Below are positions 20,946-64,000 of a stretch of 64,000 nt of DNA, one piece after another (within the stretch, counting starts at the first letter, position 1; each line of letters opens with the position of its first letter). The notes beneath the pieces were generated by a model, which was not told where the DNA came from, did no database searches, and worked only from the letters and a program-made list of their open reading frames with translations. Made by a program: the position numbers and the translations under genes. The stretch is from Psammoneis japonica (lineage: Eukaryota). The stretch covers positions 62,001 to 126,000 of the forward strand of contig QPGO01000120.1 in the NCBI GenBank assembly GCA_008632985.1, read 5' to 3'.

Positions 20946-21049
20946 TGTGTGGAAGCGTTATAATTGGATCAACTCTAGCGCTTTTTTTTATCATGTATAA
21001 AGGAAGTTACTTTTCTTAGATGTAAAATGTTGTTAGGAGCTCAAGATAC

Positions 21050-22160
21050 AATCCAAAGGCAATGCTGCACCAAAAATTGCGAAAAAACAAAATTTGCATC
21101 GCAATTTTGACACTGCCTGGTCCACAGTTTTGGCGGGTGAAACCCACCTTGCAAACAGCAATTGCCCTTGCAAGTTGAAAGCGAGGTTGGACCAGAGACC
21201 AAGTGATCGTTGACACAAGAAAAGAGCAATCAGGCCAATCCTCCCAACCAATTGTGTGGAACTGGCTGCTGTCAGTCTTGATGCCAGAGCCACAATTCAA
21301 TGGCAAAGGCTGTGCGAGGGGGTGTGAGCTGCGTGGTCAGTTTTCACACAAAATGGTGTGGGGTTCAGTCAGCCCACTGTGTTGGCCAGTCAACCAGCCC
21401 CATTTTTGCCAAGTGCCTTTTCTGTGGTGGAACACACAGTGTGCAGAGTGCACAACAACCACTGCTCACTCCACTTTCACATTTCTTTTGCACAGTGTGT
21501 CCCTTGTGAGAGCTGGCTCTTGCTTGGTTGTGTGCTCACCTCTGCCATGGCCAACTGTGGTGTGAACTTGCCAATTTGGTGCACTTGCACTGTTGATGAT
21601 GAAGGTTTCAACACTTTGGAGGAAAAACATTTTGAGATGGGTGTGCTGTCAGCCCACGCGGAGTGAAGTGCTGCCCAGTTGCTGCTCAACTCGCGCAAGC
21701 ACATGCAGAGGGTGGCACCATGTGAGTTTTGGTGCTGCTCAGCCAGACAAAAAAGTTTCCAGATTTTGACAGCAGGCTGGATAACCTTTGGCAGTGGAAG
21801 ATGTTGTCATCAGCACCTCTGGCACCTTTCTGTTTGTGAAAAGGGGAGAGGGAGACTTTTGAAGCTCTGTGGTCAACAGCTTGATCGCTGCTTTCAATCC
21901 TCATGGCTGTGACATGCATGAAAACACTTTCCCAACTTGTTGTTGCAGAAACTGGGAGTGATGAAGGTGCCATTGCACTGCATTGTGTGTGTGTGTGTGT
22001 GTGCAGGCCGCTCTGGTGAGGCGTTGACCAGGAGCAATGAGGACGAGGCCAAACACCTTGTGTGCCCGTTGTTGGCTGGAGAGAGGTTGGTTGTTCCTCA
22101 AGAACAAGTGTTCTCTGTGACACTCAGATTTGGTCATGATTCTTGTTTTGCAATCATTGT
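21050..22160. repeat. TpA/CpG-depleted repeat relic containing a (TG)n tract
   Basis: Composition shift as in the other repeat domains; (TG)n at about 21984-22003. Confidence 0.55.
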
Positions 22161-26259: not shown

Positions 26260-29200
26260 TGCGTGTCAAGTGTCAATGCAATCACGTCCAAAATCCCAAA
26301 ATCCAAAAACGTGGGCACAGACAGACAACACTTTGTTCCAATCACGTCACCCAGAGCAAGCAATCACCATTGATTCTTCCATCCGGCGTGCTCGAAAAGG
26401 GGAGCACGGGCTGCAACTTGCAACAACGTTTGGTTGGGGGACAATGAAAGACTTGCCATTGAGTCAACCAGCAGGCAAAGATGAGCGCAGCTTCGCCCCA
26501 CTCAAAGAGACTGCCAACCAGACCAAACACGTTGGGGCTGTGAAGGGCAGTCATGCCACCTTTGTGCACACTCCAGCAGTGTGGCAGAAAAGATGACACT
26601 TGTCAAGCACCCATCAAAAAACACAAGGACAATTTTGTTGTGGTGTCAAGAAAACCCCACATGCTGCAGCAGACCTCATTGCGCGTGCCCCCCCTTTTGT
26701 GTCGCCTGCCGCCATGGTTGACAGCCAGCAGCACTTCCAGGTGAGGAGGAAGAGGGCTCTGAAACTGCCATGTCCCAGTCTGCTAGAAAGCTGAGGGGTC
26801 CCTCCCTGTCCACTGATGTGCTGGTGCCATGCAAAGACCACACTGTGACGACAGACTTGCCACAGCAGCGCTGAGTGAGCTGGGTGGCTGCACAGAGTGC
26901 TGCCACAATCAGAAAACAAAACCACTGGCAAAACAGATGTGGTGGTTGCCCTGTGGTGGAAGCAGAACTTGTGCAATGTAGGCTGCCCCAGCAATGTGCC
27001 CACCAGCATGTTTTGTGGACCAGCGGCATCTGGACAATCTAACGGATGTCTGGGACAGATGACAATCGTGCACTGGATGAGAAAGAAAGTGAGCAAAGGA
27101 GAGATCATCAGATCTCTCCATGCTGTCCATGCCAGTCTGTCTGACACAAGGGAGTGCACTCCCCATCTTGGATGTCTGTCACCCTCCCCTGATGAGCAAC
27201 GCAATGCTCAACAAGAAAGAAAGAGACAATCCGGACAAAAAGAGGACCAGAACAGCAGATGACAAAACAAACAAAACAGAGACACACCCAAGACTCAATC
27301 CACAACAAACCCGATGACAATCAACGGCAGTGTCCCATCAAGCAGCGAGCATGGCGGGAATGGAGTGTCCAACCCATGGCCTTGGTCAGTGCATCAGCAG
27401 GGTTGATGACACCCGGGATGTGTCGAGTGACAATTTTCCCTGCGTCACGCCAGTCTTGGATCGCAAAATGTTGAATGTCAACATGGTGCGATCGCTCCGT
27501 AGGCACCTTGTTGTTGATCATCCGGACAGCAGAGGAATTGTCAATGTGCAAGGGAGCAGGATTACATTGGACAAAACCGAGCTCTTCAAGGACCATGCGA
27601 AGGTGCAACGTCTGCTTGGCAGCAGTGACAGCCGCGAGGAATTCAGCCTCGGTGGAGCTGGTGGCTGCAATGGCACGACAACGGCAATCAATCGCAGCAC
27701 CAGCAAGGACATGTGCGCACCCATCAGTGGATCGGTGACGCCACAGTTCATTGCCATGTGCTGCATCAACAAAACCAATCAATTGAAACAGATCGGCAGC
27801 ACGGGGGAACTCAGGAAGGGATGGAGCATCTTCGAGCCACTCAAACATGCTCTCCAAGGTCATCCTGAAGCTGGTGTTCTGTGGGAAAAGCACATCAATT
27901 TGATCCTCACTGGTGCAAAACTTCTTTTTTGCAACACTGCTCATGACAAGTGCATCTGCTCCGGTGAATGTGATGGTGTCAAGGTTCCATTGCTCCGTCA
28001 AGTTGATGATTTTGCACTTGCTTGTCCTTCTGAGAAGATTGCGAAGGAAATCTATGATCACATTGGAAAAGCTCTCCAGATGGAGAACGAGGATGCTCCC
28101 CCCTTTAAACATCTCGGCCTCGTTGCTGAATTCAATGGTGTTGATGTTGTCCAGAATGATGATTCGATCACGATCAATGTTGCCAGCTACCTTGACCGTG
28201 TCTTCAAGACCCATGGATGGGATGCTCCCACTGCGAATGAAACTGACAGTGATTTCAAGGCTGCTCCTGTGCCGGTCGACTGCATCCCCGAGTTGCATGC
28301 TGCTGAAGGCCCTGAGGAGGGCACCCCTGAATGCGATGTTCTCTCTGACTCTCATGGATTTTCATGTCGCTCTCTCAAGAATTGGTCTTTGCCCACTCGT
28401 GCTGTCGCTTGGACATCAGACACCCCATTGTCACCTTGTCCAAGTTCTCTAAGGCTCCTGCTGATGTTCACTGCGATTCCCTCAAGCGCATGACCAAGTG
28501 CCTGCGATGCACCAAACACTGGGGCTTGACGTGCAAGAAGACCAAGCATGATCCGGGCTTGCCTCCCCATGCTTTTGAGTGGCTCGAAGATGCTCCATCC
28601 CTTCCTGAGTTCCCCCGTGCTGCCAATCTGTTTCAATTGCTTGGCTTTGTTGATGCGGCACATGGCAATGAACTGTGGCATCGCACCTGCTGTGGCAGCT
28701 GGTGGAGGTGCAGAACTTGAAGTTTGAGATGACTTTGGACATGGAGCATCACTCACATCGTCCCAACATGCAAAAGACAGAAAATCAGGGCGGAAGAAGA
28801 GGAACACAGTCTCAACATAGACCGTCATGGCATCGTGTCCATCTGAAATTGCCTGGATCACAGCCTTCTGAAGATTGGTGAGGTTCAGACGAATCGGAGA
28901 AGCTTCAGGAGCAGCCACAAAGAGAGGAGCTTTGTCCACAATCGGGCCAATCCGTGTGAGATCTTCAGTCAACGCAGCCTTGGGGATGATGAGGTCATGA
29001 ACAATCTCACGACGGAGAGTGGCAACAGCATCGCTCTTGAGGCCTTGAGGAGCAAATCCGTCCAGAAGTTCTTCAGGAGCAGGCATCTTGTCGGAATGAA
29101 GGACATTCAGGTGATGATGGGCATCAGGTGAGCCATGCTGGGGGTTGAACACAACCAGCATCGACTTGATCTTGGTCAAATCGACGGCGTTTTGATTTTT

Positions 29201-31830
29201 GTTCACCATGGTTGCACGGGGAAAAAATTAAATTCCTGCGCAGAGCTCTGGTGTGTGTTCTACGGTGGTCGTTTGATCACAAATCGAGAGGTGAAAAAAC
29301 AGCTGTGACAATGATGACGATTTCAATGAAGAAAAAGTCGCCAAATCACACAACAGGCATTGCAACGGAGGAGCACAGAGGAAGAGGAACAGCGCACTGC
29401 TGCTCATGACCTTGCGGACTAGCGGCATCGGGACAATCTAACGGATGTCTGGGACAGATGACAATCGTGTGCCAGATGAGAAAGAAAGTGAGCAAAGGAG
29501 AGATCATCAGATCTCTCCATGCTGTCCATGCCAGTCTGTCCGACACAAGGGAGTGCACTCCCCATCTCGGATGTCTGTCAATGTTTTTGTTTGCGCCCAT
29601 TTTGACTTCCCTTTTTTGTTGTGTCTCACTGCCCCACGTCATTTTGAAGTTGCAGTCTGCTCACGTCAAGCATGCTTTGCACTTTGGAAACCACAATGAA
29701 TCAAGTTGCAGCAAAGTGCCTCTTAAAGGGTTGATTGCTGTTGGCTCAAATGCACAAACACAGTGCTCAGCTGTCTCAACAGCACATCAGGTGCTGCCGC
29801 AGATGGCAAGTCTGGTGCTGTTGTTGCAAGGCTCAAAGCCCATTTGATTGGTTGTCAATGCCACACATGATGCTTGCAAAATGTGTGTTGGGTCAAATTT
29901 GTCGCAACAGAAAGAAGCCAGGACCCCCTCTTTTTTGCTTGTGGCTGAGTTGCCAAGAGCCTTGATCCAGACACAGCAGTGTGACTGGACTGTGACCAGA
30001 GAAGCCACATTGCCAGGGCACCGTTTGGGCTGATGGTTCACAAAAAACAATGAGACTGGTTGAAGCCTGTCAGTGGACAACTGAGTTGTTGCCAGTGATC
30101 AGAGTGTTTTGCAAACATCAGCTGCAATGCTAGAGAAGATGCCCTTCACTCTGTGTGCTTGCTGTTGATGAAAAAGGCAAATGTGCAAAACACATCTGCG
30201 CTGACTTTTTTCCCATGTTTTCTCTCACTGCATGCTGTGCCATCATTGCACTCCATGTGGTCAGAAATGAACATTTGTTGCTCCCTCTGATTGTGCATGG
30301 TTTGACTTCAGAGAGACTTGGCGCCACATCTGTCAGCACTTGTCAACCAGCAGCACAGTGCCAGCACACATGTCACACTGACAGTGCAGACCACCAGTCA
30401 TGCAACAGAGAGTTGTGACATCGGACTTGCGGAGCATTCCCACAGTGCACCAATGCCTGCCTTGCCATTCACAAATGAAAATCAGTCAAATTTTGTCCAG
30501 ATTGATTTTGTTTTTTCTTAAAAATGAGAGAGTCTGTTGTTGCTTTGTTGAGGTGGATGCAAATGCAGAGTGGCTTGCCATTGCTTTGACCAAAAGATGC
30601 CCAACCTTGTCTCTCATTCTTCCATTGCAATCAATGAGATCAATCAAGAGTTCTCATTGTGCAGAGTCAAGCCCAGGCTGTGCAAACATTTTGGAGGCCA
30701 CCAGCAAAAAAGCGCTGCCCCAAATGACAAACAATGAATGGGGTGCCAACAACAATGCTGTCATTGGTGCTCATGATGATGATGAAGAATGATGATGCAG
30801 TTGTTGTGTGCCACCCCTGCACAAGAATTGAAGCTCACAAGGACTTGCTTCAGTGCAAACCAAAGTCATGCTGCACACATGCTGCAGTCCTCTGACAAGT
30901 GGCACTTTTCTTTGCAACCTGCACTCTTCTGAAGTTGTCTGCAAGCAGGGGCAACAACCACAAGACATCATTTGTCATGGTGCCATGTCATGCAACCAGC
31001 AGCATTGGCTCTGGCATTGCACTGCAAGTGCACTCAAGTGCAGAGCTTGGCTGCAATGCTGTGGTTTGGATGACACCACAAAATGGCAGCACAATGACCC
31101 CACCACAGGTGTTGTTTTGAGTGCTGGCATTCTGTTCCAACAAAGTTGAGAACTCGGTGATGCACTCTGGCTCCAGGTGGGAATTTTTTGAAACATTTTG
31201 CTGCAGACTCTCCATGTGCAAGCTCTGTGCAGCTCACTTGTTGGGCAATGACTGTGCTTTGTCTTTGACACAAATGCAAACTGTGGCTCTTTTGCAGCAC
31301 GGGGAACAAGGCAGCAAGCCCCCCCTTCTTGTCAGCAGTGTGTGAGCTTGACTCGCTGCTGGATCCGCCACACACATGGGTTGACAAGATGCTCTTTTCC
31401 TCCTCTCCAGAAGCACATCATTTTGACTGCTTGGCACCCATGTGGCAAATCTGTGACTTGTGTTTCGTTGCACTGAGAAAGAAGTGGAAAAGATTTGCCA
31501 CCCTGCAGAGCAAAGCCAGAGTCCCCCCCCCCAAGAGAGTGAGGCACTGTCTGAGCTGAGGAAAGAAACAGCTTACATCAAAAAACAGCAAGCCTTGGAT
31601 TTCCTGAGACAGCAGGTGAAAATGCCACACAAGCAAGGTGGCTGTTGCTTCAGCCTCAAAGCTGCTGTGCAAAGAGGGCGGCATTGTTGCTGCCCACCAC
31701 CGCTCTTCTCATTTGGGGGGGGGGGGAGACACGGGCGCGCAATGGTGAAGGTGAGAAGTTCTTCACACATTGGCACGGCCTGCATTGGTCAGGTTGAAGG
31801 TGTGCAGCAGGTCGAGACCCCCGCCATTTT
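26260..31830. repeat. TpA/CpG-depleted repeat domain hosting a nested LTR element
   Basis: Composition; flanks of the LTR element are more eroded than the element itself. Confidence 0.7.
27014..29580 (-). mobile_element. Internally deleted and rearranged Ty1/copia LTR retrotransposon
   Basis: 168-bp LTRs 29413-29580 (5') and 27014-27181 (3'); flanking duplication ATGTTT (27008-27013, 29581-29586); PBS-like GGTcATGAGC (29402-29411); PPT AGGGGAGGG; RNase H end on minus (SSTEAEF..NPADALTK); RT piece on plus (ALQGHPEAG..LRQVDD); probable gag start on minus. Confidence 0.9.
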
Positions 31831-32063: not shown

Positions 32064-32633
32064 ATGAAGGTCAACGCTCTCATCTTTACCCTCTGCGCCT
32101 TCCAGGGTGCTAGCGCCTTCACCGCGCCGCGTTCCATGAGCGCTGCTAAGACTGCTCTGGCTTCGACCGGTCCAGAGGCTTCGGCCATGACACAGGCCCC
32201 TCCCGAACCCATGGCGCCTCCACCACCCCCGGAGCAACCCTATTATGGTGCGTATCTCTTGCCCGGGTCTCTTGTTGCCGAGGTTTACGACCTGATTCTC
32301 AATTGATTTGCTTTTCTGCTCATGACAGCCGAACCCGAACCTGTCATGCGGGCTCCGACCTACATGTCCGACCAGGAAAAGATCTGGGGTGCCAAGGGAG
32401 GCGAAGAATGGAAATACAGTCATCGCAGTAGCTTTGAACAGAACCCCGCCTACATCCAACCTGAAGTTAGCTTTCCTCAGGCCAGAGCTCACCGTCCCAG
32501 TAACTCTGCCTATTACAGTGGCAACTCGCGTGGTGCCGGCGGAAACACGTGGTATCATGCAGCGTACTCTGATTACGATCAAAATGGAAGCGGCGGGTAC
32601 GAGAACCGTCACCGCCCCCCTTATTCCTATTAG
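32064..32633 (+). CDS. Unknown plastid-targeted Tyr/Gly/Arg-rich protein, paralog 1
   Basis: Exons 32064-32247 and 32329-32633 (phase-1 GT-AG intron); ASA|FTAP presequence; conserved with paralogs 2 and 3. Confidence 0.85.
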
Positions 32634-33388
32634 GGTTAGGGAGTTGCGAAGCAGTCAAGCCTGTGACCGGGGAAGCCTACATGCTTTCTCCGGGGATTGA
32701 CGACTTCTGCTTCAAAACCCCGGGCGAAATGAGAATGAGGACGACCGCGGTGACTACGACATCAGTCGTCGCAACCTTCAGTTTTATTCCAGAGGGAGGA
32801 GTCGTTCAAGTTTAAAAGTTAATATTGGTTAAAAAGCTGGGAGAACCGTGTAGGGGGGACACCACAATAAAAAAATAGATAAATGCTTGCTGCTTAGTTT
32901 TTTGCGGTATATGTTGCAAGTTTTGATTAAGAATGTTCGTCTTAATGTCCTTGTTCTACAAAAAATGATGATCTATGAAAAAGTTAGGAGGGAAAAATTT
33001 CAATACCTCTTCAAATTACCGTAACTTGAACCGGTCTTCTGCGAGTGGTGTGGTACTCGCATCAACCTGCTTTCTCTGTGACTCGCCTAGAGAGTAGAGG
33101 ACTAGGGCCCTAGGCTACGATCACAGGCCTTTCGTGGTGGTTGATGTTTCAAAGAACAAAGTGCCAATCATCGTAAAGACGAAGCCAAATGCGTGTCATC
33201 AACTTTCGTCACCTTTGGTCATCTGATCCATGTCAAGTGATACAAGTACCTACGTATGTAGAATTGTACAGCACAATGGTGACGTGGCCTAGTGCCGTAG
33301 AAAAGTACTGTGGCGGAATCAGTACAAGGCAAAGAACCGGATTCTCGCTTCGTTCACAAAAATTTCAAAAAACTCCCTCCACCCCACC

Positions 33389-34081
33389 ATGAAGATCGCC
33401 ATTCTCCTTTCCCTCTGTGCCGGGTCCAGCGCCTTCACCGCCCCGCGTTCTAACGCCGGTAACACTGCGCTTTCTGCTAGCATATGGTGCCCATGACCGA
33501 GGCCCCTCCCCAGCAGCAAGCCCCTCCTCCGATGCGCACGGAACAGCCATACGCCCCTGAGCAACCCTACTACGGTACGTGAACCATTTTCGTGGATCGG
33601 AAAGCTTTACGGTTCTCCTGTCTTTTAGACAAAGAACAAGTGATTTTCCTACGCAATTATTGTGTAATTGTCGAACGAAGCAGCGAAATCACGTCAACTG
33701 TCTGTTGTTTCCTCCCTTTCTAGTGTCTCACTTGTTTGCAACTCTTTCTGTCTGTCGATTACAGCCGAGCAGGCTCCCCCAATGAGGCCACCCGTTGTGT
33801 CCGACCAGGAGATCATTTGGGGCGCCAAGGGAGGCACGGAATGGAAATATGGCCACCGCAGCAGTTTCGACGCGCACCCCGACAAGCAAACCCGCGATGG
33901 CTACAACGCGGCCTACGATGGGCGCCGAGTTGCCCAGACCGGGCGGGACGGAACTCCACTCTATCATGATGGATCTCGCGGTACAGGGGCCAACACATGG
34001 TACCACGCAGCGTACAGCAACTACGATCAACACGGAAGCGGTGGATACGAAAACCGCCACCGTCCTCCTTACTCTTATTAG
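33389..34081 (+). CDS. Paralog 2 (apparent 1-bp frameshift near 33482; pseudogene or assembly error)
   Basis: MKIAILLSLCAGSSA|FTAP; intron 33575-33764 at the same position as in the paralogs; exon 2 intact. Confidence 0.75.
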
Positions 34082-35322
34082 AGGAGTGCGTGGCAAGAGC
34101 AAGCTTTTTGAGTGTTAAGAGCGGAAGTTATGTAGCTTTTTGCTATAGATTTTTGATCATTTTCAACACATGTTGCTCAGCTTGCTTCATCTAGGGAGTA
34201 CGAGGAGCATGCATCCTTTCAAAAGAGATAGAGCATTCTGATTCCAATGCCACAAACCAATTCGAATGCACGAAGCAACTCGGAGAAGATTGCATCTATC
34301 GTTCAGTTCTTTGGCATGTTTTTTCGCAAGCATATGTTGGAATTACTCATACGAAGAAATGATGTGCGAAGAAATCAACGCTTGCGAAACCTCGAAGCAG
34401 CTGCACCTTCAGGGCTTTAGCCCCACAACATGTCGTTGTGGTGCCAAAGGTCTGTTTCCAGAGATCCATCGCCCGATTCTCCACGAATTCGTGTCTACAA
34501 TATAAGACTATCTGTACTACGATTTATTAATGGAATAAGGCTTGCATCACACCCTCGCCATTATCAGTTCTTCCCACGAGCTCACTAGTGGGGTGCATCT
34601 CCCTACATGTAGTAGAGAGCTAACCTTTTAATTCATAAGATTTAGCCAACAGAGAATAGTCTCGTCGACCCCCGCATAAGGTAATAGATACAGCGGGGCT
34701 CCGCAAGCTCCACCCCGCTTCACCCAGGCCACCAGTCGTATACACAGATACTAGTAGTAGGTACGAGTCGATTGGGGCTGGCAAAACAATTTACAGGCTT
34801 TCCCAGACCCGCCGGCTCGGACAAGAGCGCCATAGGATGGAGCCCAAAGGAATACACAGGGTGGGTCCGAAGGTAGGGTGGGAGAAGTTAGGCGGCAAGG
34901 TGGACGGGAACTTGATTGAGAAGTGCTTGTGCCGCCTGAGGCACATTTTGGGCCGGTAGTAAAGCAAATTGGCCATGAGTGGCCATGGCGGTAGCAAAAT
35001 TGCGCATGAGAGGGTAGCATTGCGCATGAAGATAGCGGAGCATCTCGTCGGAGCGCCAGCGGCCGACGAGACTTTGGCACAAAGAAGTGCCATGGCACCG
35101 CCGGACCGGAGGCCACGAGTAGTCACGTGGGAAGGATGCAGGTTGGTGGTACATTATTTCCTCGCACCTAATACTTGTCTTAGAATGCCTTGTAAGTATA
35201 AGGCTTAGTGGCATTGGGGAGCTCGCATTAAAACCTATACCGGTCGTACGGTCATAGTAAGTAGGCTAATGAATAAAAAGTGCTGATGATAAAAAGTGCT
35301 GAATACAATATTATGACCTTAA

Positions 35323-37939: not shown

Positions 37940-39095
37940 GATTGTGAACAAGCTTTGTTGTGCGGTTGCCTTTGTTTGTTCTGGTTCTTATTTTATTAAT
38001 GTCACCGTCACCCAGCCAGGCTGATGCGTTTCGATCGTGAGTCGTGAGTTCACCATCAGTCAACTCGTGGATTACTCGAGAGGCATTTTTACTCGTGACT
38101 GAAAAACGTCGCCCTTCGATGACGTGGATGCACGATGCACAGTAAGTGCTTGCTGGAAGTCTCGGCCTGAGGGACTGAAAATTGCCCTCAACGGAAATCG
38201 CCGTCACGTTTGGCGAGGGCAGAAAGTGGTCGGTCAAACGAACGGGACAATGAGAGAAGATTGACTCACACGGGTTCCGACAGCTGTGACTTCATCCGGT
38301 GCCGACGCCGATGACTTTGTTGTCAAGTCGAAGAGCACAGCTGTCACATCACCTGGCGGCAAAGCCTGCGTCTTTTTGCGTTCAGTGAGAATCTTGGAAA
38401 TGGCAACAACAAAAACACACCTGCAAGAGCAGGAGAGCACCCCAAGAGAGTGCAGCGAGGTGCCATGGTGGAATCAAACTTTCTTGGAGGACTTCTTGCA
38501 AGGACAAACAATGTTGTCACAACCAGGGGGGCAAAAACAAGTTTTTGGGTGCTGCATCAACATGCCACACAGCCACACTGCTGTGGGAGACTCCAGCCGA
38601 TGCACCCCAGCAAACCCATGCTGTTGATCATGCCACAGGAAGAGGATGGCGGGAGTTGATGTCATCCTGGGATGACACAGCCCCGGGCAACTTGGCAGCA
38701 TCTTGTGCCTTGCACAGCACTCTGAGCCAAGCACAGGCTTGCAGCCAGCTCTTGCCTCTGCCAGCGATCACCAATTTTTTGCCAGTTTGACACAAGCTTC
38801 TCTGCCTTCTCCATCTCAGCTAAACACAAGAAATGGGCCCAATCTCTTTTGCCAAGCAATTGTCTCATCATCAGCTGCGGGCAACTCAAGTGTTTTCACA
38901 TGCCTTGTTGGCACCGTCGCCAGCTGGCTGCCCAGTGTGTGACATGACCACATGTGCCCATGCATGGGTGCATGATGGGTCTTGGTTGCACAGCCATGTC
39001 TCTCAAAAATCTCACTGCTGAGACATCAAATCATGTGCAGGAAATGACAGACAAGTTTCCCAGAGCCCCAGAAGGCTCGCTCTCCTCATTTTTTG

Positions 39096-42000
39096 TGACA
39101 GGATTTGAACAGGATTTGGGTGCGCGCGAAATGTCGCGCGCTGTTTAGTTTGCCGCGCACAGTTTTGTGTGCTTTAGTTCCGCATGTTCGCACGCGATGT
39201 GGTTTGCTTTCGAGCCACAAGACTCACAAGAATGACAACAGCAGCCCGATCACACCGACTTGCACGTCTTTCGGCTCCTGTGACGGTCTCTGAGCGGAGA
39301 CTCATCTGCCATTTAGACAGCAGTGAGGAGTCATTGTTTGAATTCTTGCCATTTGCCTTCAATTTCTGTCAGATCAACAGTCTTGCTCATTGTCAACCCA
39401 TTGAGCAACCGCCATCGTTGTCGTGATTTACCAACGACGCCACTTCAATTCTGCGTGGACCTCCGTGTGTGTTCTACATGCATCGGCAAGTCTGCGCACG
39501 TTCAACACCAGGCATCGGCAGGAAGTTGACGTCACCGTCAAAGCCTCCTTGCCGCTGGACATCTGGATTGATTGTGCCACCTTTGATCGCTGAAGACATG
39601 CATCAAAGGTCACGCCCCAAGTCTGTCCTTGATCCTCATCCCTTGGCACACCCATTCATCGGTTGACGGTCAAGAACCCCACATGTTCAAGGATCTTCGT
39701 CGCTGAAGACATGCATGTGTGCATGTCTTCACGGCCAAGAACTTGCACCCACTCTTCGGACTGCGGTTTTGCTGCCACTCTACAAGCACACTGAGTCCAT
39801 TGCACCTGATCTGCCCCGGACTGCTGGTGCTCTGTGGTTCCACTGGGTCCACGAGGACGACTGTGAGAGCAAGCAGCCGTGACCACAGCCTGCGTTGGGG
39901 CGATGGTGTTTTCCCGCGTTTGTTCGTTCGTCCACAGCGCCCAATGCCTGCGTCAACTGGCCAGCCTGATCGGGAAATCCAACCGACATAAAACAAGAAC
40001 GGTTCGGGGGTCTTGTCCACCTCTGGTCAGCTCACCTGCAGGGGTTTGCAACCCGCTGCTCCGCTCGCAAGCAACCCAAAGCGCCGCTGGCTGCGGGTTC
40101 GGACGTGCCGGCACAACTCTACGGACCGGATGGGAAGTTTGGCACTTGACAACGAACGGGATGGCACAGCCCGGCGACTTCTGATTTTAAGGTAGTTCAA
40201 GATTTCAAGTCAAGTCCATTTCAAGTCAAGTCCACTCTCACCCAAGTTTCAAGTCTGCCCTCGCTTCCCAACAAGAATTGCTTGTCCTGACACCACTTTT
40301 GTCTGCCATGGTTCTCACTCGTCAGCAACAAACCGATGGTTTCGAGCACGTTGTTGGAACCGTGCTTGCCCAAGGTGTTGGGAGCCCTCTTCGTTTGGCT
40401 TTGACCCAAGACGGCACGGACTCGCATCAAGAACTGTTCACGTTCATGCCGTCCCAAATCGACTCGCTTGAGTGCGACAACGGCGCTAATGTGGTCCCTT
40501 TGCCCCGCGGTTATAAGAACATGTTAGCAGCTCTGACCAGTCTGTGCATTGTCAAAGCACACGAAGGTCTTGACGTTGCCAATGACTCCTCGTTGTTCAC
40601 GCATGATGAGTTCCTTGCCTGCCGCCTCAGCCCCGACCACATGTCTTCTGTGTCCGTCGGCAGCTCACCCCTCGCACCTCCGCATGTCACCAACCCGACC
40701 AAGGCACGCGACCCGGTGCGAGACTTCAAGCGAGGCATCAAGCGCGACCCCACCGCTTTCACGGCTCTCAAATCTGACAAGCAGTGGCACACTTGGCACA
40801 CCTCACTTGTGGCACAAGCCCGTGCCCAAGACGTCGAGTGCACTCTAGACTCGTCGCACAAACCAACCAGCCCCGAAGACAAACTGCTCTTTGCTGAACA
40901 GCAAAAGCACATGTTTGCCGTCTTCGAACGCATTCTTCTCACCGACAAGGGCAAGGCTCTCATTCACGAAAATGTGGGGTCTTCTGACGCCCAGACTGTC
41001 TGCCGCGCCTTGTCTGAGCATGCGCTCGCCTCCACCCGCGCATCCATCAAGTCCTCCACCTTGCTCACGCACCTCACCACCGCACGTCTTGGTGATGGCA
41101 CTTGGAAAGGTCCGACCCACGGGTTCATCCTCCATTGGCAAGATCAGTTGTGCAAGTGCGAGGCACTCATCCCGGCCAGTGACCACTTCTCTGAAGGACA
41201 GAAGCGCGTCATGCTAGAGAATGCCGCACACCCTGTCGAGGAACTCCGTGCTGTCAAGAACCAAGCTGATCAGCATCGTGCGCAGAGTGGCAAGAGCCTC
41301 ACATGCGATCAACACTGTGGCTTGCTCCTCTCCGCGGCGGCTCAATGCGACAGTGCGTTTCAACCCAAGACAACACCTCGAGCTCCCCGACGTGCCATGT
41401 GCGCACACGACATCTGCTCCGAGGAACCGTCCGACGATGTGTTCTGCGACATTGACAGCGACATTGACGTCCTTCAGGCCAATGCTGCCTGCACCCGTGG
41501 TCCCAGCCTCACCGGTGACCAATGGAAACGTCTCCCTCCCGACCACCAACGGATTTGGGATTCGTTGCCCCATTCCTCCAAGGCGATCATCCTTGAGCAT
41601 TCTCATCCGCCTCCCCGCAACCCGCGAGCCAGCAACTGCCATGAGTCCGTTACGGCCAACCTTCACGACCAACGCCTTGGGAGTGACGGTGATGTCAACT
41701 TGTCCAACACGACTCCTGCTGACTCTGGTGACTCCGCTCCAAATGTGGGTGCCACTTTGGACAATCCCATCCTGGCGCACCTCACCAAGTGCAAGCCACT
41801 GCCACCCGGTGATCTGCAACATCTGTTGTCTCCTAACCAAGCCCCCAACGCCAGTCGACCGGGGCCATCCGCCGCTCCCTCTACCCCGCCAGCTTCTGCC
41901 GATGACATGGAACTTGCGGCCACACTTGCCGTCGCGTCAACAACCACAATGTCATTTGCTCTGCCTCTGCTCATCGCTCCACACACACTGGTGCTCTAGT

Positions 42001-45000
42001 CGATCGTGGGGCCAATGGCGGCATTGCTGGCGACAACGTTCGCGTCATTGCACGCACCTCTCGCCAAGTCAACGTTCAGGGCATTGAAGACCATCAATTG
42101 GTGGACATCCCTGTTGTCGCCGCTGGTGCCGTCATTGAGACCCAGCGTGGTCCCGTCATCGCCATCCTCCATCAGTGCGCATGCACGGGCAAGGGCAAGA
42201 CCATCCATTCCTGCGGCCAGCTCAAATGGCACAAACAGGATGTCAACGATCGCTCTGTCAAGGTGCCCAACGGCTTGCAACGCACTGCCACTCCTGATGG
42301 CTGTGTCATCCCCATTGACATCAAGGGCGGCCTGCCTTTTGTTGCCATGCGACCTTGCACTGACGCCGAATGGGACACCCTGCCCCATGTCATCCTCACC
42401 GGTGATGACACATGGGATCCTTCCGTCCTCGATCACTCTGTCACTGACGACGACCAGTGGTGCGATGCGATCTCTGACCTGCAGGACGATCCCACTGCCA
42501 ACCCATTTGACGAATGCGGCAACTGCCGTCATCGTGTCGTTGTCAATGAGACCATCATGTCCGCTTCCTTGTCTGCCGATCACGTGTCCGCCCTCGATGA
42601 TCACCTCATTCCGAACAACGACGTGTTCCACGAGTGTCATCCACACGCGATTGACCCCAAGGACGACGACGTTCCGCCCCCGGAGCAAACTGTGCAGCCC
42701 AAGGACCCCCCCTTCGAGTCTCTTCGGCCTCACTTTGGCTTCCTCCCTGCCGATGCGGTCCGTCGCACTTTTGACTGCACCACGCAGTGCGTCCGCATGC
42801 CCGCCAGTGCACGCCTTGGGAAGGCCTGCAAATCACCCAACCCCGCCCTTAATGTGCACCGCCGCAACGAGCCCATCGCCACTGACACCGTTCATGCCGA
42901 CACCCCGGCCGTCGACTCTGGTTGCACCAGCGCCCAACTGTTTGTTGGCACCGAGTCCACCGTCACTGACGTTTACGGCACCAAGACGGACAAAGAGTTT
43001 GTCAACACACTCAAGGATCAGATCCGGGAGCGTGGTGCCCCATCCAAACTCATTGGCGACCGTGCTCAAGTTGAGATCAGCAACAAGGTGCTCGGGATCC
43101 TACGAGCCCTCTTCATCTCCAGCTGGCAAAGTGAGCCTCACCAGCAACACCAAAACTTTGCCGAGCGTCGACACCAGACCGTGAAGCGCATGGCGAACAC
43201 TGTCATGGATCGTTTTGGTTTGCCCGCCCACACATGGCTGCTGGCGCTCATGTGTGTGTGCTTCACACTCAACCATGCAGCGTCCCCACGTCTCCACTGG
43301 CGCACGCCCCTCGAGACTCTCACTGGCTCCACCCCGGACATCAGCCCATTGCTTCGCTTTCACTGGTGGGAACCCATGTGCTTCCACCTCGATGACTCCG
43401 ATTGGCCGTCCGAATCCCGTGAGTTGCGTGGACGCTTTGTTGGCATTGCTGAGCACGTCGGCCACCAGATGACCTTCAAGATTCTCTCTGATGAGACTCA
43501 GAAGATCCTCTGCCGGTCCAACGTACGCTCCGCCACCACCGATCCTGCCGTTCGAAACCTGCATCTTGATCCTCCTGATGGGGAGCCACCTGAACCCATC
43601 ATCAAATCTCGCCATGACGACAACCCCGTCGATTCTCCTGATGGGGAGATCAGGACACCCAAGATGCCAGTTTTCGATCCGCAAGACATCATCGGACGCA
43701 CCTTCCTCATGCAGCCACAAGAGGACGGACAACGCCACAGAGCTCGCATCGTCAAGGCCGTCGAAGACCACGAATGGAAAGTGAGTGGCAATCCCGAGCT
43801 CACTAAGTTCGTCTGCTCTGTCAACAACGAGGAATGCGAGGAAGTCCTTGCCCACAATGTCATCATGAATCACATTGAGCAAGAAGACGAAGACACTGCT
43901 GTTTGGAAATTTCGACACATCGTGTCACACGAAGGACCTCTGAAGCCTCATGACCCAACCTGGAAAGGCTCAAGCTACAACATCATGCTTGAATGGGAAA
44001 GTGGGGAGATCACGTCCGAGCCTCTTGCCATCATCGCCAAGGATGACCCCGTCACCTGCGCCATCTATGCACGAGAGAACGGACTTCTCGACACTGATGG
44101 CTGGAAGCGGTTCCGCACCATCGCGAGGCGCCAAAAGAAGCCATTTCGCATGGCCAACCAAGCCAAGCTTCGCTCCTTCTGCACTGCACCTCGCTGCAAG
44201 TACGGATGCGAAGTTCCCCGGAACTGCAAACACGCCATGTCACTAGACGAACGCAACGGCAACCGCAAATGGGGAGATGCAACTAATCTCGAGATGGACC
44301 AACTCGAGGAATACGAAGTCTTCCATGACTGCGGGCCCTTCGAGTCTTCCACTCCTCCTGCGGGACACAAGAAGATCCGAGTGCACCCAGTGTACGACGT
44401 GAAACACGACGGTCGCCACAAGGCACGACTCGCAGCCGATGGGCACCTCACAGACGTGCCTGTCGACAGTGTCTGCTCCGGAGTGGTCTCCCTCCGTGGC
44501 CTTCGGCTGATGATTTTCCTGGCCGAACTCAATGAGTTGGAGACATGGGCCACCGACATTGGCAATGCCCACCTTGAAGCCACCACCAAGGAGAAGCTTT
44601 ACATTGCAGCCGGACCCGAATTTGGCAAACTCGAAGGACACATCCTTGTCATCCACAAGGCCCTGCATGGACTGCGCAGCTCTGGTCTCCGCTGGCACGA
44701 GCACTTCGCCGACTGCCTGCGAGCTGAAGGATTCTTCCCCTGCCACGCCGAACCCGACATTTGGATGCACAGGAACGGCGACCACTGTGAACACATTGCC
44801 GTTTGTGTGGATGACCTCGCCATTCCCATGAAGGACCCTCAATCTTTCGTCGACACTCTCACGGAAAAGTGCAAGTTCAAGCTCAAGGGTGCGGGACCCA
44901 TTGAGTTCCATCTGGGTTGCGACTTTTCCCGGGATCCTGACGGAACCTTGTGCCTGTCTCCACGCAAGTACATCGAGCGCATGGTCGACAGCTGCGCCCG

Positions 45001-46199
45001 ACTGTTTGGGGAGAAACCTGCCACCAACGCCCTGTCACCTCTGGAGAAGGGTGACCACCCCGAACTGGACACTTCCGAACTGCTGGGGCCCGATGGCATT
45101 CACAAGTTCCAGTCTCTTGTTGGTTCACTCCAATGGGCAGTGTCCCTTGGTCGAATTGACATTGCCACGGCCGTCATGTCACTCTCTAGCTTCCGAGCTG
45201 CGCCCCGTCAAGGCCACTTGGATCATGCCAAACGCGTCTGTGGGCACCTCTCCAAGATGCGACACGGCGCTCTCCGTGTTCGCACGGAAGAGCCCGATTG
45301 TTCGGATCTCCCTGCTCCGGCCTATGAGTGGATGCATTCCGTGTACGGCGAAGCAGAAGAGATGATCCCGAAGGACGCTCCACCGCCCCTTGGCAAGTTC
45401 GTCACTGCCACCCACTGCGTCGATGCAAACTTGCACCATTGCATGCTCACCGGACGCTCTGTCATGGGAATGCTCCACTTCCTCAACAAATTCCCTGCTG
45501 ATTGGTTCTCTAAGAAGCAAGCCACCGTGGAGACTGCGACCTGCGGGTCTGAATTTGTTGCCGCAAGGACTTGTGTCGAGCAGATTGTTGACCTGCGCAT
45601 CACCCTGCGCCACCTTGGCATCCCGATCCGTAATGTCAGTTACATGTTCGGTGACAACAAGTCGGTTGTAGACAGTGCCACCATCCCGCACTCCAAGTTA
45701 CACAAGCAACACACTGCACTGTCGTTCCACCATGTGCGTGAGGCAATTGCCTCTGGTCACCTTGAGTTCCACTTCATCGAAGGCTCCCGCAACCCTGCTG
45801 ACATTCTCAGCAAGCATTGGGGTTGCTCCCAAATCTGGGACCTTCTCTGCCCCCTCATGTTCTGGAACTTCATTCCATCCGAAGTCGAATCTGTTTCTGT
45901 GACTCCTCAAGCAAACTGGGGAGTGACAGGATTTGAACAGGATTTGGGTGCGCGCGAAATGTCGCGCGCTGTTTAGCTCACCGCGCACAGTTTTGTGTGC
46001 TTTGGTTCCGCGCGTTCGCGCGCGATGTAGTTTGCTTTCGAGCCACAAGGCTCACAAGAATGACAACAGTGGCCCGATTGTGCTGACTCACATGTCTTTT
46101 GGCTCCTGCAATGGTCTCTGAGTGGAGACTCATCTGCCATTTAGACAGCAGCAAGGAGTTGTTGTTTGAATTCTTGCCATTTGCCTTCAATTTCTGTCA
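39096..46199 (+). mobile_element. Full-length Ty1/copia (CoDi-like) LTR retrotransposon, hypermutated
   Basis: 276-bp LTRs 39096-39371 and 45924-46199 (TG..CA); TSD TTTTG (39091-39095, 46200-46204); PPT GGGGAG; domain order gag-PR-IN-RT-RH. Confidence 0.97.
40308..45976 (+). pseudogene. gag-pol polyprotein of the copia element (one frameshift near 41910; Tyr mostly replaced by Cys/His)
   Basis: FKRGIKRD (gag), ALVDRGANGG (protease), ATDT..GDRAQVE..QNFAER (integrase), KHDGRHKARL, DIGNAHL, CVDD (RT), CGSEFVAAR..NPADILSKHW (RNase H). Confidence 0.93.
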
Positions 46200-47530
46200 T
46201 TTTGCAGCGCCAAAAGCTGGCTCTGCAGGCTGGATTTGCACTGACACCTTCTTTGACCTCGCCTGTTGCTGCTCGCTGGTGTGTGACAGCAAGCCACAAG
46301 CTGCTGTCATGAAACAAGCATGTCACCAGCCAGCTTGTCCTTTTTGGGGAGAGGGGTGGCTTGTGCAAAAATGCAAGGAAGGGGGCATGCCACATCATTG
46401 AGAGAATGATGCCCGCCCTCAGTTTTTGAAGCTGTTGCTGCTCCTTCAATGACAGGAGCAGGAAAAAAGAGCAAGGTGATGGCCAAGCGGGGGCACGTGT
46501 CAACGGCATCTTCAGATCATGTCAAACACAGAGTGCTCTGCTGACCAAGAAAAAAGCTTTGTGAGCAAGTCTCAGTGCAGAGGAGGAGAGCACCACACTG
46601 CTTGAATGCAGCAACAATTGTCTTGCTTTGGCTGTTTGTTTTTTTCATTGGAGCAGCTGCAGGGAGTGCCCTGTTGCTGAGCTCTGCGGGGGGGCATGGA
46701 CCTGCAAGGCCGCGAGATGCAGAGAGACAAGCCACAGCAATGTCGTCCCATGCACAACATGAGTTGTCAAGGGAGATCTGCAGGGATGGAGTTTTCCAGC
46801 AGGAGAAGGAAATCCCCTGTGGTGTGATTGAAAAGCCACACAGAGGCTGCACTTTGCACATTGTGCAAAAAGCATGCCGGGCGTGTGTGCGCGTTTTGAG
46901 TTCATTGGGTCAGAGGGGATCTCTGCCTGGCACGTGCATGTGAGGAGGTCACGCGCAATGTCACCCAGTGTTGCGGTGTGAAGACCAGATGGTGCAGTGG
47001 GATGAAACGACATCATGCAGGTGGGGAACGGGAGGGTTTCGGGGTTGGATTGGCAAGTTGTGGTTGAAGTTTGGTGGAGCGGCAAAGAAGCTGGTCAGCA
47101 AGGGATTTGGTGACCGTGAGACTGAGACTTTGCAAGGATCATTGGCTTGGGGTGGTGGTGTGGCATGTGAGACCAAACCTGGTCGAGGTGATGGTGTTCC
47201 AGGCAGTTGTGGCAGTGGGAAGAAGGCCCGATGGGGAGAGTTGGGCATTGGTTGCGAAGAAACTCGCATGGCATGTTGGGCCACTATGACGTCACAACCA
47301 GATGCGATGGAGGCTTCAGACAAAGAGACAAGACACCTGCCGCAGCTCGGATGTGCCGACGTCACAAAATTGAAAATGGTGACATCAGCAGATTTTGTAT
47401 GGTTCGCCCCGTAGAAAGTACCGTAGTACAGTACGTGCGTTGGAAACGCACTCTCGTTGTGCGAAAGAACAATTAATTGTCTCATCACTCTTTTCACAAT
47501 TTTTCAAAAACTCCCTCCAACACGACCAAC

Positions 47531-48125
47531 ATGAAGATTGCTCTCCTCCTCTCCCTCTGTGCCGGCTCCAGCGCCTTCACCGCCCCTCGCTGTAACGCAA
47601 GAAGCACCGCTCTTGCCGCCAGCCGCACCATGGAACCCATGACTCAAGCTCCCATGCAGCGGGCTCCTCCCCCTCGTATGGAACAGCCATACGCCCCTGA
47701 GCAACCCTACTATGGTACGTTCGTAGGCCCTATCTGTTACGATCTATTACTCCCGTTTCCCTCGCCCAATATCTCACTCATTCGAATCATATCTGTCTCT
47801 CTCCGTCACAGCTGAGCCGGCTCCCCCAATGAGGCCGCCTGTCTTGTCTGACCAAGAGGTCATCTGGGGCGCCAAGGGAGGCACGGAGTGGAAGTATGGT
47901 CATCGCAGTAGTTTTGACTCGCACCCCGACAAGCAGACCCGTGATGGATACAACCAGGCCTATGATGGTTCTTATGCTCAAGTCGGACGGGATGGCACTC
48001 CTCTCTATCATGATGGATCTCGCGGTACCGGGGCCGACACTTGGTACCACGCTTCATACAGCAAATACAACCAAGACGGAAGCGGAGAATACGAAACCCG
48101 CCACCGCCCTTCTTACACCTTTTAA
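47531..48125 (+). CDS. Unknown plastid-targeted Tyr/Gly/Arg-rich protein, paralog 3
   Basis: Exons 47531-47714 and 47812-48125; SSA|FTAP presequence; same intron position as paralogs 1 and 2. Confidence 0.85.
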
Positions 48126-48645
48126 AGAGCGTTGCGGAAAAGTCAAGTCTGCTATGTAGGTGCTTGCGAGATTGGGAAAAGCGGAAGTTATGTGGCCGCG
48201 TTTGCTGTAGCTTTTTGTAATTGTGAACACGGGTTGTTGTACAAAATACTCCTTTTTAGCGGCCTTCATTATCTTCTTGAGCTGAAGAATGCATTGCACA
48301 TGCATGCTTTTCGAGTGAGGAACAATAGCATTAGCTTGGTTCGCATAAAGCTCGAACTTGGACTCAATAGAGTCTTCTACTCTAGCTCGTATGAGACCGT
48401 CCAGAAAGATCGGCATTCGTTCGCAGCAGCACAGACTGTGAATTAATCACTGAACATTCAATAAGTGCACTGACGTAGTCAAGACCAAAGCTGAGAAACG
48501 ATTACGTAGAATTCAGGGCAAGCTATTTAGTCGTCTCCATAAAGCCATGTACTTACCGGATCAGAAGGGAGAAGGATAAGGCAGGAGGTAGGAGAAGCGA
48601 AGTCGTCACAGCAAAATGTTCAAGGACAAAGAACCTCAGATGCGT

Positions 48646-56082: not shown

Positions 56083-57625
56083 ATTGGGAATCGAAATACT
56101 GCACAACCTGGATCCTTCGTACACGCTTTCCTTAGTGCGCGCTTCTCCAAATTTGAAATTGCTGCATGGTTTCAAACAAAACAGAAATCCATAATTCACA
56201 ATGACACACAATGGAATCAAGCTCATTGGATGAATTATACAATTTATGTTAAGAATGAAACAAGCAACGGGAAAATCGGTGAAAGTATCATTGAGATATC
56301 ACGCCGTAAAGTGGGACACCGGCGGCTCGCATCATCGTGCTGCTGCAGTTTGCTGCGTGCAAATTGACTTGGTGAAATTTTGTGAGGGTTTCGTGTCCCT
56401 TGGAAATTGTGCGTGTTGTGTGCGATTGATTATGTGTCTGTGTATGGCACTTGTATGCGTGTCGTGTCCCTCAGGAATTGGGTGTACTGTCCCTCTGAGT
56501 CGGTCTAACACAGAAAATCTGGAAAGATTGCATCGGCGATCGACGAGGAGTCCTTTTCGACTGCGTTCAGGTCGGTCCCGTAGGCCCTCTAGTAGCTAGC
56601 TACTAGCTAGGGCCCTAGAGCTGGGGCCCTAGCTAGCCAGTAGAGACTGCTCGCCCCCCCTGCGTGCCACTCTATTGATTTAGAGGTGGCTTTCTACGGG
56701 TCGATCATTGATCGAGACCCTCGATCAACGAAGTCTCCAGTGCAGGCGCCTGCAGAGCGTCTACGGTGATCAACGAGACTCGAACCCCCGATCAACGCGG
56801 GAAACCTCACCTCTCCCTCCGAGCTCCGCGTGATGGATTTCACAAAGAACGATGATGACGAGTTGCATTTTCATGCGTCGTGTCACCGACTCATGACTCG
56901 TCAGATGTGAATCAAACCCAAGAGTTGGTTGACAACATGGCCGAAGCTGCCGACACCCAAGAACATGATGGCGGTGCGGCTTCGATTCGCCCCCATCCAC
57001 CCTCACAAACTGTCGATGCGTCATTTGACGCGATGTCAGTGACAAGGGAGTGGGACAAGGAATTGGAGGAGTTCAACCCTGACTCCTTTGAAAGGGACGC
57101 CTCGTGCCATGCAACAAAATGTGGCATCAACAAATGTGGTGCAGTCGATGGAGCTGGAGCCACTGATCAGTCTGCACGACCGCTTGCATTGGAGCAAGTC
57201 GCTCTTTTCAAGGATGCAATCTTTTTTGCAGATCCTTTCACTGACGAATTGTTTTCTGTTTCAACAGAAACCATGAGAGACAAAATGATTCATCGTGGGT
57301 TTCGTCAGGTGCAGGCAAACCACATTGTGGATCTGTCTTGCCTGCCAGCTCCACCCCGGCAAGAACAAGCACAAGATTCAGCAGCACCGCTCGGCGACCG
57401 GTTGCCTCCGTCGACGTTGACGTTGCCAAGAAGTGGTGAGAGCAAGAATTTTGTGCCAAGGCCATTTTTTAAAAAACAGAAGAGAGGAGACATGCGCCAC
57501 TGCAGCAGTCCGTGCATGTGAAGAAAAGGTGGTGGATGGTCGAGATGCAGTCCTGCAGCTGGTGGGATGGACAAGACCTCGGAGGTTGGCAGCAACATGA
57601 ATGGCGACAGAGGCAAACAGACGCT

Positions 57626-63600: not shown

Positions 63601-64000
63601 CGATGTGAAGAGCTTCGGCAGCAAAGTCCGTGCAATCCTTGCTGGGACAGCCAGCCAAACTGAGGTCTTCTAGCTGCTTCTCAGCTGTCTCAATGTCCGT
63701 TAGAGCGCCAGCATTGCAAGCATCGAGAGCCATCATGAACAGAACAGATCCAGGGCAGTCTTGGCAGTCCTTGAGATGGTTGAACTTGGTCTCGATTTTC
63801 TCGCAAAAGGCATCAGTGATGCTTGAGTGAACAAGCAGCTGAGAGAGCCCGATGTCGTTGAGCTTGATCTCGTCGCACTTGGTGTCATCGGCAGCTGCTT
63901 TCCTGACCTTGCATTCATTCACGAGATCAGTCACCGTAAACTCGTGGAGATGTTCGAAGACATGTCGAACCTTGTCGTCGCTGTTCTTGACATGGCAGAA
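57626..64000 (-). mobile_element. Ty1/copia LTR retrotransposon, hypermutated, 5' end outside window
   Basis: gag with knuckle-like Cys motif (62549-63934), protease VMDTGA, GAG-pre-integrase H..FGH..CEAC, integrase VSVDH..ADSG..QNSVAER (59973-62180), RT/RNase H (about 57795-59915); PPT GAGAGGGAGAG near 57770; 3' LTR boundary only approximate. Confidence 0.92.

Follow-up and report, generated by a model that had tools for sequence, protein, structure and literature searches.

The 64,000-nucleotide stretch of the Psammoneis japonica genome analysed here (assembly GCA_008632985.1, contig QPGO01000120.1, positions 62,001 to 126,000; hereafter the window, numbered from its own first base) carries at 39096-46199 a Ty1/copia long terminal repeat (LTR) retrotransposon in which the RVT_2 reverse transcriptase domain, LTRs with TG..CA ends, a 5-bp target site duplication (TSD) and a polypurine tract are all present. 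The element lies on the forward strand. Its LTRs, each of 276 bp, occupy 39096-39371 (5') and 45924-46199 (3'), both starting with TGACAG and finishing with CTGTCA; the polypurine tract GGGGAG (45918-45923) adjoins the 3' LTR, and the same five bases, TTTTG, stand outside the two LTRs at 39091-39095 and 46200-46204. Because this matching TSD indicates one single insertion, the LTR pair was identical on arrival. We show here that the two LTRs have since diverged almost exclusively at pyrimidine-purine (YpR) steps, in a pattern that very probably reflects hypermutation of TpA to TpG or CpA after integration, confined to transposon DNA.

The coding parts of the element are readily recognizable. 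A gag-like open reading frame (ORF) of 573 aa (40278-41999), matched to a homologue over 40308-41876 and with no Pfam match, precedes a pol ORF of 1292 aa (42098-45976; Cys 3.3%, His 5.5%) that is 66% identical, as measured against homologue P0003, to gag-pol polyproteins, unnamed and about 1900 aa long, from metagenomes of marine and freshwater origin. The RVT_2 domain covers pol residues 754-965 (44357-44992; Pfam PF07727, E = 7e-23) and contains a damaged catalytic motif: in the alignment to homologues, the codon at 44804-44806 turns the family's YVDD into CVDD, replacing with Cys a Tyr (Y903) that is nearly invariant in 20 homologues. Pfam matches to integrase and RNase H were found neither in the element nor in the precomputed domain lists of its homologues. 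Whereas the relatives have a single continuous gag-pol ORF, a tblastn search with P0003 hits two different frames here, with the change at 41876-41918, which may be a programmed shift or a lesion. A blastn search of the window with the element returned its own LTR pair alone, and a degenerate LTR-start pattern, aimed at other LTR copies, had no match in metagenomes. The element may belong with the CoDi-type Ty1/copia elements of diatoms.

The gap-free alignment of the two LTRs contains 28 differences and no indel, and all 28 are transitions. Twenty-six of them fall inside YpR steps, which make up 52% of positions (binomial P = 4e-6). They comprise eight reciprocal TG/CA swaps spanning 16 positions (39151, 39242, 39251, 39253, 39261, 39281, 39324 and 39332), two TA-vs-TG sites at which each LTR retains one TA (39176 and 39201), eight CG-vs-TG/CA sites (39184, 39185, 39192, 39256, 39265, 39272, 39284 and 39295) and two remaining differences (39149 and 39222). 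This is exactly the tally (no indel, about 28 transitions, classes of 8, 2, 8 and 2) that the initial annotation of the window had reached by hand. Sequences under ordinary divergence behave differently. Five pairs of paralogous host-gene segments in the window differ by 98 transitions and 60 transversions, YpR steps holding about 40% of the transitions, and against their ratio 28 transitions out of 28 have P = 1.6e-6. As a further control we used 80 related loci from metagenomes, which belong to other families (51-66% protein identity), and which serve for composition and LTR spectra but are unusable for polarising the LTRs; 14 repeat pairs from these loci show 91 transitions, 57 transversions, 77 gap columns and three swaps, some of their apparent LTR pairs being 100%-identical contig-end overlaps or tandem copies that are uninformative.

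Two other repeat pairs in the window, also cited in the initial annotation for direct TA-vs-CA/TG differences, carry both swaps and such sites. An element at 27013-29580, on the forward strand, has repeats at 27013-27181 and 29412-29580 that differ by eight transitions and one transversion, including two swaps and one CA/TA site. The pair at 9256-9419 and 12691-12883 (9256-12883, forward strand) differs by 18 transitions and two transversions, with seven swaps, three CA/TA sites and one TA/TG site. The first of these elements also contains a 109-bp inverted repeat (27737-27845 vs 28574-28682; 95% identity) whose arms show five differences, four of them transitions and three of those in YpR steps.

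Mis-assembly or polishing errors in a high-copy repeat could in principle produce a chimeric LTR, and the best sequencing run does contain only 54% of the sampled words of the element and differs from the window at the flank sites 38837 and 38878. Yet errors of this sort would not give 28 transitions out of 28, bound to YpR steps and free of indels; the matching TSD and a junction contig reaching into the 5' LTR support the structure, and the same signature recurs in three LTR pairs and over roughly half of the window. We therefore regard an artefact as barely credible. The two flank differences (G>A at 38837, C>A at 38878) are seen at full depth in the sole single-copy left-flank contig of the read set X1 and could stem from variation between strains or haplotypes or from a mistake in the assembly.

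The direction of change, as judged by a protein outgroup, by composition and by other copies in the organism's reads, is from TA to TG or CA. For the protein outgroup we took 45 full-length homologues, the first in the list of 120 to measure 1800-1990 aa, and defined as conserved the 40 columns with Tyr in at least 80% of them. At these columns the element has TGC 12 times, TGT 5, CAC 10, CAT 2, TAC 6, TAT 1, TTY (Y, pyrimidine) 3 and TGG 1, so that Tyr is kept in only 7 of 40, with Cys (TGY) in 17 and His (CAY) in 12; 29 of 36 Tyr codons have thus been converted to TGY or CAY. Residue classes besides Tyr are 74-97% kept. Where the first base of a codon has changed from A to G it is preceded by T in six of eight cases, and where it has changed from G to A it is preceded by C in all seven real cases. 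The Tyr content of the encoded proteins has collapsed accordingly, to 0.2% in gag and 0.9% in pol, compared with a median of 3.85% among the 120 homologues listed, the lowest of which is not below 1.5%.

Composition points the same way. In the element the observed/expected ratio of TpA is 0.13, with CpG at 0.86, TG and CA at 1.35-1.55, ApT at 0.96 and the other dinucleotides near 1, and its GC content is 0.57 vs about 0.48 around it. Among the 80 related metagenome elements the TpA ratio has its median at 0.72 and never falls below 0.49.

Other copies of the family were sampled from the contigs of four runs of one sample, aligned at a likeness of at least 80% over 38600-40400 (4889 contigs). 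Since summed depth rises from 59 in the single-copy flank to approximately 2-6e5 over the LTR, the family is very abundant. Forty of 137 variant rows were listed, and 36 were used after dropping two flank rows and two without X1 support. In 27 of these 36, other copies have A or T at the G of a TG or the C of a CA in the window, which corresponds to TA if the neighbouring base is unchanged, a condition that the variant table does not always make visible. The remaining nine comprise one swap (a two-row pair), four rows involving CpG and three other changes. Among the 132 X1 places, other copies have A/T for G/C of the window at 76 and the converse at 46, with transversions at 10. One contig (X4 record 25) represents the junction of polypurine tract and 3' LTR in another copy and differs from the 5' LTR over 39095-39183 only at 39152 (G>A). 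It reads TA at the swap at 39151-2, where the two LTRs have TG and CA, and at 39149 and 39176 it has the base of the 5' LTR. At 39201, A accounts for 96% of family depth, whereas at 39251 and 39253 the share of T (50% and 39%) is compatible with TA or TG alike. At the five polarised LTR positions the derived states are all A/T to G/C, four of the five in TpA. The ancestral TA that the initial annotation had assumed at the swap sites is therefore supported at 39151-2 by the TA of this contig and, for the swaps as a group, by the CpG rates discussed below together with the conversion of 29 of 36 Tyr codons; the other seven swaps lack individual polarisation.

CpG decay accompanies the loss of TpA. 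Ordinary decay of this kind, running in parallel, is the best reading of the eight CG-vs-TG/CA sites, and the hit rate of LTR CpG copies (8/44) is close to that of conserved CGN (N, any base) Arg codons in the body (8/52, with 44 kept and changes to CAY in six, CAA in one and TGC in one). If the swap sites had themselves once been CpG, with methyl-cytosine deaminated on opposite strands in the two LTRs, no TpA process would be called for. The CG-vs-TG/CA sites and the Arg conversions to CAY, CAA and TGC are what such a scheme expects, as are the CpG ratios of 0.03-0.19 in older blocks at 4-9 kb and the CpG depletion to 0.22 in some related elements, and it profits from the seven swap sites that are not individually polarised. 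Nevertheless, 14 CpGs remain intact in both LTRs, and the counts (none 14, single 8, swap 8) are incompatible with a CpG model of one rate (P = 0.004). At the measured rate of 0.15-0.18, the 22-38 ancestral CpGs would be expected to yield 0.3-0.6 swaps, compared with the eight observed (P for at least eight < 2e-7). CpG decay also leaves unexplained the conversion of 29 of 36 Tyr codons, the coexistence of a TpA ratio of 0.13 with a CpG ratio of 0.86, and the TA reads in other copies, including that at 39151-2. Three of the related copia loci from metagenomes (L037, L003 and L004) show what CpG decay alone looks like: they are CpG-poor (0.22-0.24) yet TpA-normal (0.49-0.52), and so lack the TpA signature. 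Decay of CpG as the sole cause is thus very unlikely.

The two components differ widely in pace. We estimate 1.6-1.8 hits per site for TpA, 0.17-0.20 for CpG and 0.008 for non-YpR positions, which as a relative estimate places the TpA process at about 10 times the CpG rate and about 200 times background. The Kimura two-parameter distance between the LTRs is 0.113 over all sites and 0.015 outside YpR steps. This 7.4-fold ratio bears out the warning of the initial annotation that LTR dating would overestimate the age of the element, with the additional difficulty that the signal saturates.

Sister LTRs record post-integration events only, and the per-copy rates derived from them (about 0.84 for TpA and 0.18 for CpG) can be compared with those of the element's body against the conserved protein (0.81 and 0.15). 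Because the LTR rates equal the body rates, nearly all of the damage arose after integration. Both strands were hit: Tyr changed to Cys 17 times and to His 12 times (binomial P = 0.46), transposon blocks of the window contain 3254 TG and 3381 CA, and at the swaps the 5' LTR has TG at four and CA at four. RNA editing yields A>G on the sense strand only. Were cDNA deaminated at the strong-stop stages of reverse transcription, each swap should have its TG in the 5' LTR and its CA in the 3' LTR, and minus-strand editing after plus-strand strong-stop synthesis could make the LTRs differ. An origin before integration, by an ADAR-like enzyme on element RNA or by a deaminase on single-stranded cDNA, with the LTR differences reflecting strong-stop timing, draws on this last possibility and on the preference of ADAR for U before the edited A (bioRxiv 10.64898/2026.01.13.699255). 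However, sense-strand T>C is as common as A>G and the swap orientations split 4:4 rather than uniformly, which excludes RNA editing and editing during reverse transcription as sources of the pattern; the agreement of LTR and body rates speaks against them as well. The surroundings of the insertion are also informative. The block at 38001-47000 holds the focal element together with older flanking transposon DNA, and these flanks, with TpA ratios of 0-0.11 and CpG ratios of 0.2-0.45, are more TpA-depleted than the element itself and therefore fit continuing decay in place, as expected of in-place accumulation. Editing before integration is thus highly improbable, and the central claim of the initial annotation, that the mutations arose on the chromosome after integration, is upheld.

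A chromosomal origin still leaves two routes to the LTR differences, because a real TpA process could have acted elsewhere, with the differences brought in by ectopic gene conversion, from copies of the family that had mutated in other ways, rather than made by independent hits in place. The extreme abundance of the family provides ample donors, and other copies do carry variants such as TGTG joined to downstream sequence resembling the 5' LTR. On the other hand, the differences are single and scattered over 39149-39332, with interleaved orientations and no tracts, and the LTR rates match those of the body, which has no partner. We consider gene conversion improbable as the general explanation; were it to hold, the mutations would still be chromosomal in origin, so that the main conclusion of the initial annotation would stand.

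Taken together, these comparisons of DNA and protein sequence show a TpA-specific, strand-symmetric, transposon-confined A:T to G:C process acting after integration, and such post-integration TpA to TpG/CpA hypermutation very probably explains the LTR differences. We propose that, once this element had integrated, a very fast mutation process acted on its chromosomal DNA, sparing all but transposon sequence and converting TpA to TpG or CpA (A:T to G:C at the palindromic TA), with the strand picked independently at each site. On this reading roughly 80-90% of TpA sites have been hit in each LTR and in the body, opposite-strand hits in the two LTRs show up as the TG/CA swaps, and a slower CpG to TpG/CpA decay affecting 15-18% of CpGs has in parallel given rise to the CG-vs-TG/CA sites. 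The element is thereby inactivated without stop codons, through Tyr to Cys or His changes, with TAA and TAG erased and GC raised. By analogy with what has been proposed for Bigelowiella natans, we infer as the agent an enzymatic adenine deamination in DNA, in which A becomes inosine and is read as G, presumably aimed at silenced or foreign chromatin. What may be responsible instead, and gives the same pattern in our data, is a modified base placed symmetrically at TpA that promotes deamination or mispairing, as 5-methylcytosine does at CpG.

Several observations weigh against this interpretation. Only five of the 28 LTR positions, and one of the eight swap sites, are polarised by another copy, and the four runs that supplied those copies all belong to a single study of a single sample, from which the assembly itself probably derives; they consist of short contigs, whose shares are weighted by depth and do not count copies. 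A TpA model with one rate (none 2, single 2, swap 8; rate 0.84) fits only marginally (Monte Carlo P = 0.03), a misfit that may come from context heterogeneity, the surviving TAs being in the refractory YTA context. Individual sites could owe their state to ectopic conversion between LTRs of copies that had mutated differently. The signature appears in none of the 120 homologues listed and in none of the 80 related loci. Finally, no strand-coordinated runs or clusters were found, hence nothing pointing to a processive single-strand enzyme. The initial annotation had suggested strand-coordinated runs as a sign of processivity, but the 29 converted Tyr codons form 19 Cys/His runs vs 15.1 expected (z = +1.5), and neighbouring TG and CA in transposon blocks agree in strand at 0.46-0.55 at all distances, the same as in genes. 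Hits seem to fall on each TpA independently and on either strand. An analysis of runs in the 36 read rows (nine runs vs 13 expected) concerns a selected subset and is not relied on here.

The signature extends over about half of the window and follows the boundary between transposons and genes. A profile in 500-bp steps is bimodal, with TpA ratios of 0-0.2 in transposon blocks (2-14 kb, 26.5-31.5 kb, 38-47 kb and 57-64 kb, with islands at 18.0-18.5 kb and 21-22 kb) and 0.4-1.2 in genes, and TA density is 4.8 per kb in the former and 37.3 per kb in the latter. Tyr makes up 0-0.9% of residues in all eight transposon ORFs tested and 1.6-4.7% in six host ORFs. By both the TpA profile and Tyr content, the process is restricted to transposon blocks and spares host genes. 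A second copia element, on the reverse strand at 57001-64000, belongs to a different family and shows no DNA similarity to the focal element by blastn; it has an RVT_2 ORF at 57642-59534 and more ORFs up to 63736, with Tyr at 0-0.3%, TpA ratios of 0-0.23 and CpG ratios of 0.55-0.98, and it extends beyond the end of the window.

The sequence context of surviving sites offers some indication of target preference. Measured against related elements, TpA survival is 2.6% after A, 7.1% after G, 14.6% after C and 16.4% after T (chi-square 107), which suggests that the preferred target is RTA (R, purine), ATA best, in the order ATA > GTA > YTA. A preference for a purine before TA would fit an enzyme with a sequence pocket.

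Further features of the window were recorded alongside. A tandem array at 3148-3696, with 69-bp units in six registers at 66-90% identity, lies in a block whose TpA ratio is 0.00, so that TpA depletion reaches a satellite-like repeat besides retroelements. The oldest-looking stretches (4001-9000 and 29501-31500) combine CpG ratios of 0.03-0.24 with TpA ratios of 0-0.11 and have TG/CA at 1.6-2.0 of expectation; TG/CA seems to be the common end state of the TpA and CpG processes. On either side of a copper amine oxidase gene (18861-20945) there are small islands low in both TpA and CpG (18001-18500 and 21001-22000), perhaps solo LTRs or pieces of transposons. The host genes in the window are long ORFs, apparently without introns. 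The named relatives of the DEAD-box helicase gene are all from diatoms, at no more than 41% identity, and for the LMF1 protein the nearest named match is a protein from an Extubocellulus transcriptome (52%). Neither search turned up a near-identical protein, so the genome is distinct from the published one of B. natans; a protein-atlas look-up matched fungal amine-oxidase clusters only and was uninformative on taxonomy. Paralogous host-gene segments at 33357-34083 and 47495-48127, together with 32365-32633, bracket the transposon block at 76-82% identity; they have signal-peptide-like N-termini and a normal difference spectrum, and were used as a control.

A process of this kind has one precedent, in the chlorarachniophyte Bigelowiella natans, as reported in the main sections of a 2026 preprint (Mettrop et al., bioRxiv 10.64898/2026.01.13.699255). 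In mutation-accumulation lines of that alga, 230 of 231 mutations in integrated nucleocytoplasmic large DNA virus (NCLDV) and virophage sequence were A>G or T>C, and all A>G/T>C mutations of viral regions were on TpA; these arose at about 6e-7 per site per generation, some 1000 times background, and only part of the lines was affected. Low-TpA coding sequences were enriched in reverse transcriptase and DDE domains, and the agent proposed there is an adenine deaminase of ADAT2-like type. The two systems share A>G/T>C change only at TpA, giving TpG or CpA according to strand, its occurrence in chromosomal DNA, its confinement to foreign or integrated DNA with host genes spared, and a resulting sequence that is poor in TpA and rich in CpA and TpG. 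They differ in host (a diatom, and thus a stramenopile, here vs a member of the Rhizaria) and in targets, which are high-copy LTR retrotransposons and a tandem array here vs single-copy giant-virus and virophage inserts there. They also differ in extent, the TpA ratio being 0-0.2 here, near saturation, vs 0.45 in the B. natans NCLDV region, and in evidence, which is comparative here (sister LTRs and Tyr codons) and experimental there. The RTA preference, the concurrent CpG decay and the sister-LTR timing test are present here and were not found in those main sections.

Among better-known processes, repeat-induced point mutation (RIP) of ascomycete fungi is similar in style, with defence-like, dinucleotide-specific transitions, repeats riddled with missense changes, skewed dinucleotide ratios and borders between transposons and genes that are respected. 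It is opposite in direction: RIP makes TpA from CpA/TpG by C>T change, lowers GC and creates stop codons, whereas here TpA is destroyed, GC is higher and TAA and TAG are erased. RIP itself is ruled out for this element by the reverse polarity, the TpA depletion and the raised GC. As regards a dependence on duplication, the target in B. natans is single copy. Deamination of 5-methylcytosine at CpG likewise has a palindromic YpR target and TG/CA products, and it is present here as the second, slower component, but it gives no account of the loss of TpA or the conversion of Tyr codons in an element in which the CpG ratio is still 0.86. ADAR and APOBEC enzymes produce deaminase-type transitions concentrated in retroelements, and ADAR also favours a 5' U/T, but they leave a one-strand signature fixed at insertion, with identical LTRs, in contrast to the equal strands and diverged LTRs described here.

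In its architecture the element conforms to diatom Ty1/copia elements, with RVT_2, a single gag-pol polyprotein of about 1900 aa in its relatives, short TG..CA LTRs and a 5-bp TSD. Term searches found no mention of dinucleotide or deamination bias in a paper on diatom LTR retrotransposons (Maumus et al. 2009, PMC2806351) and none of such a bias in a diatom transposon study (10.1101/2025.10.24.684338), which dates LTR insertions with a single substitution rate. A full-text literature search for TpA-targeted A:T>G:C mutation in diatoms or LTR retrotransposons returned the B. natans preprint as its sole match, and the supplementary tables of that preprint may list retrotransposon targets. What appears to be new, then, is the TpA process in a second, unrelated lineage, the diatoms, and a new class of target, LTR retrotransposons; the kind of process itself was already known from B. 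natans.

Our findings have practical consequences for the study of diatom genomes. The sister-LTR test places the damage after integration without experiment, and LTR-divergence ages in diatom genomics are inflated, here about 7-fold, as well as saturating. With TAA and TAG erased, the frames of dead elements stay open over long distances on either strand; only 14 TAG and 10 TAA stops are left in the element, next to 118 TGA, and gene callers would therefore over-predict. Spurious ORFs of 100-270 aa occur on both strands of 39096-46199. Homology searches will, in addition, meet proteins that are nearly devoid of Tyr.

The occurrence of the process in a second and ecologically dominant algal lineage should make the responsible enzyme findable by comparative genomics, and an activity found in nature that turns A into G specifically at TpA in duplex DNA would be of interest for base editing. 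It is tempting to hypothesize that diatoms and chlorarachniophytes share a dedicated defence that works by chromatin-directed adenine editing of DNA, in effect RIP in mirror image, which would recognize the palindromic TpA (preferably RTA) in duplex transposon DNA and convert A to G at about 200 times background, a proposal whose chances we judge to be evenly balanced. If it is true, DNA adenine-editing defence would be old or widespread in the stramenopile-alveolate-rhizarian (SAR) supergroup, and its enzyme would by nature edit A to G in duplex DNA with sequence specificity, killing retrotransposons via their Tyr codons while leaving their reading frames open.

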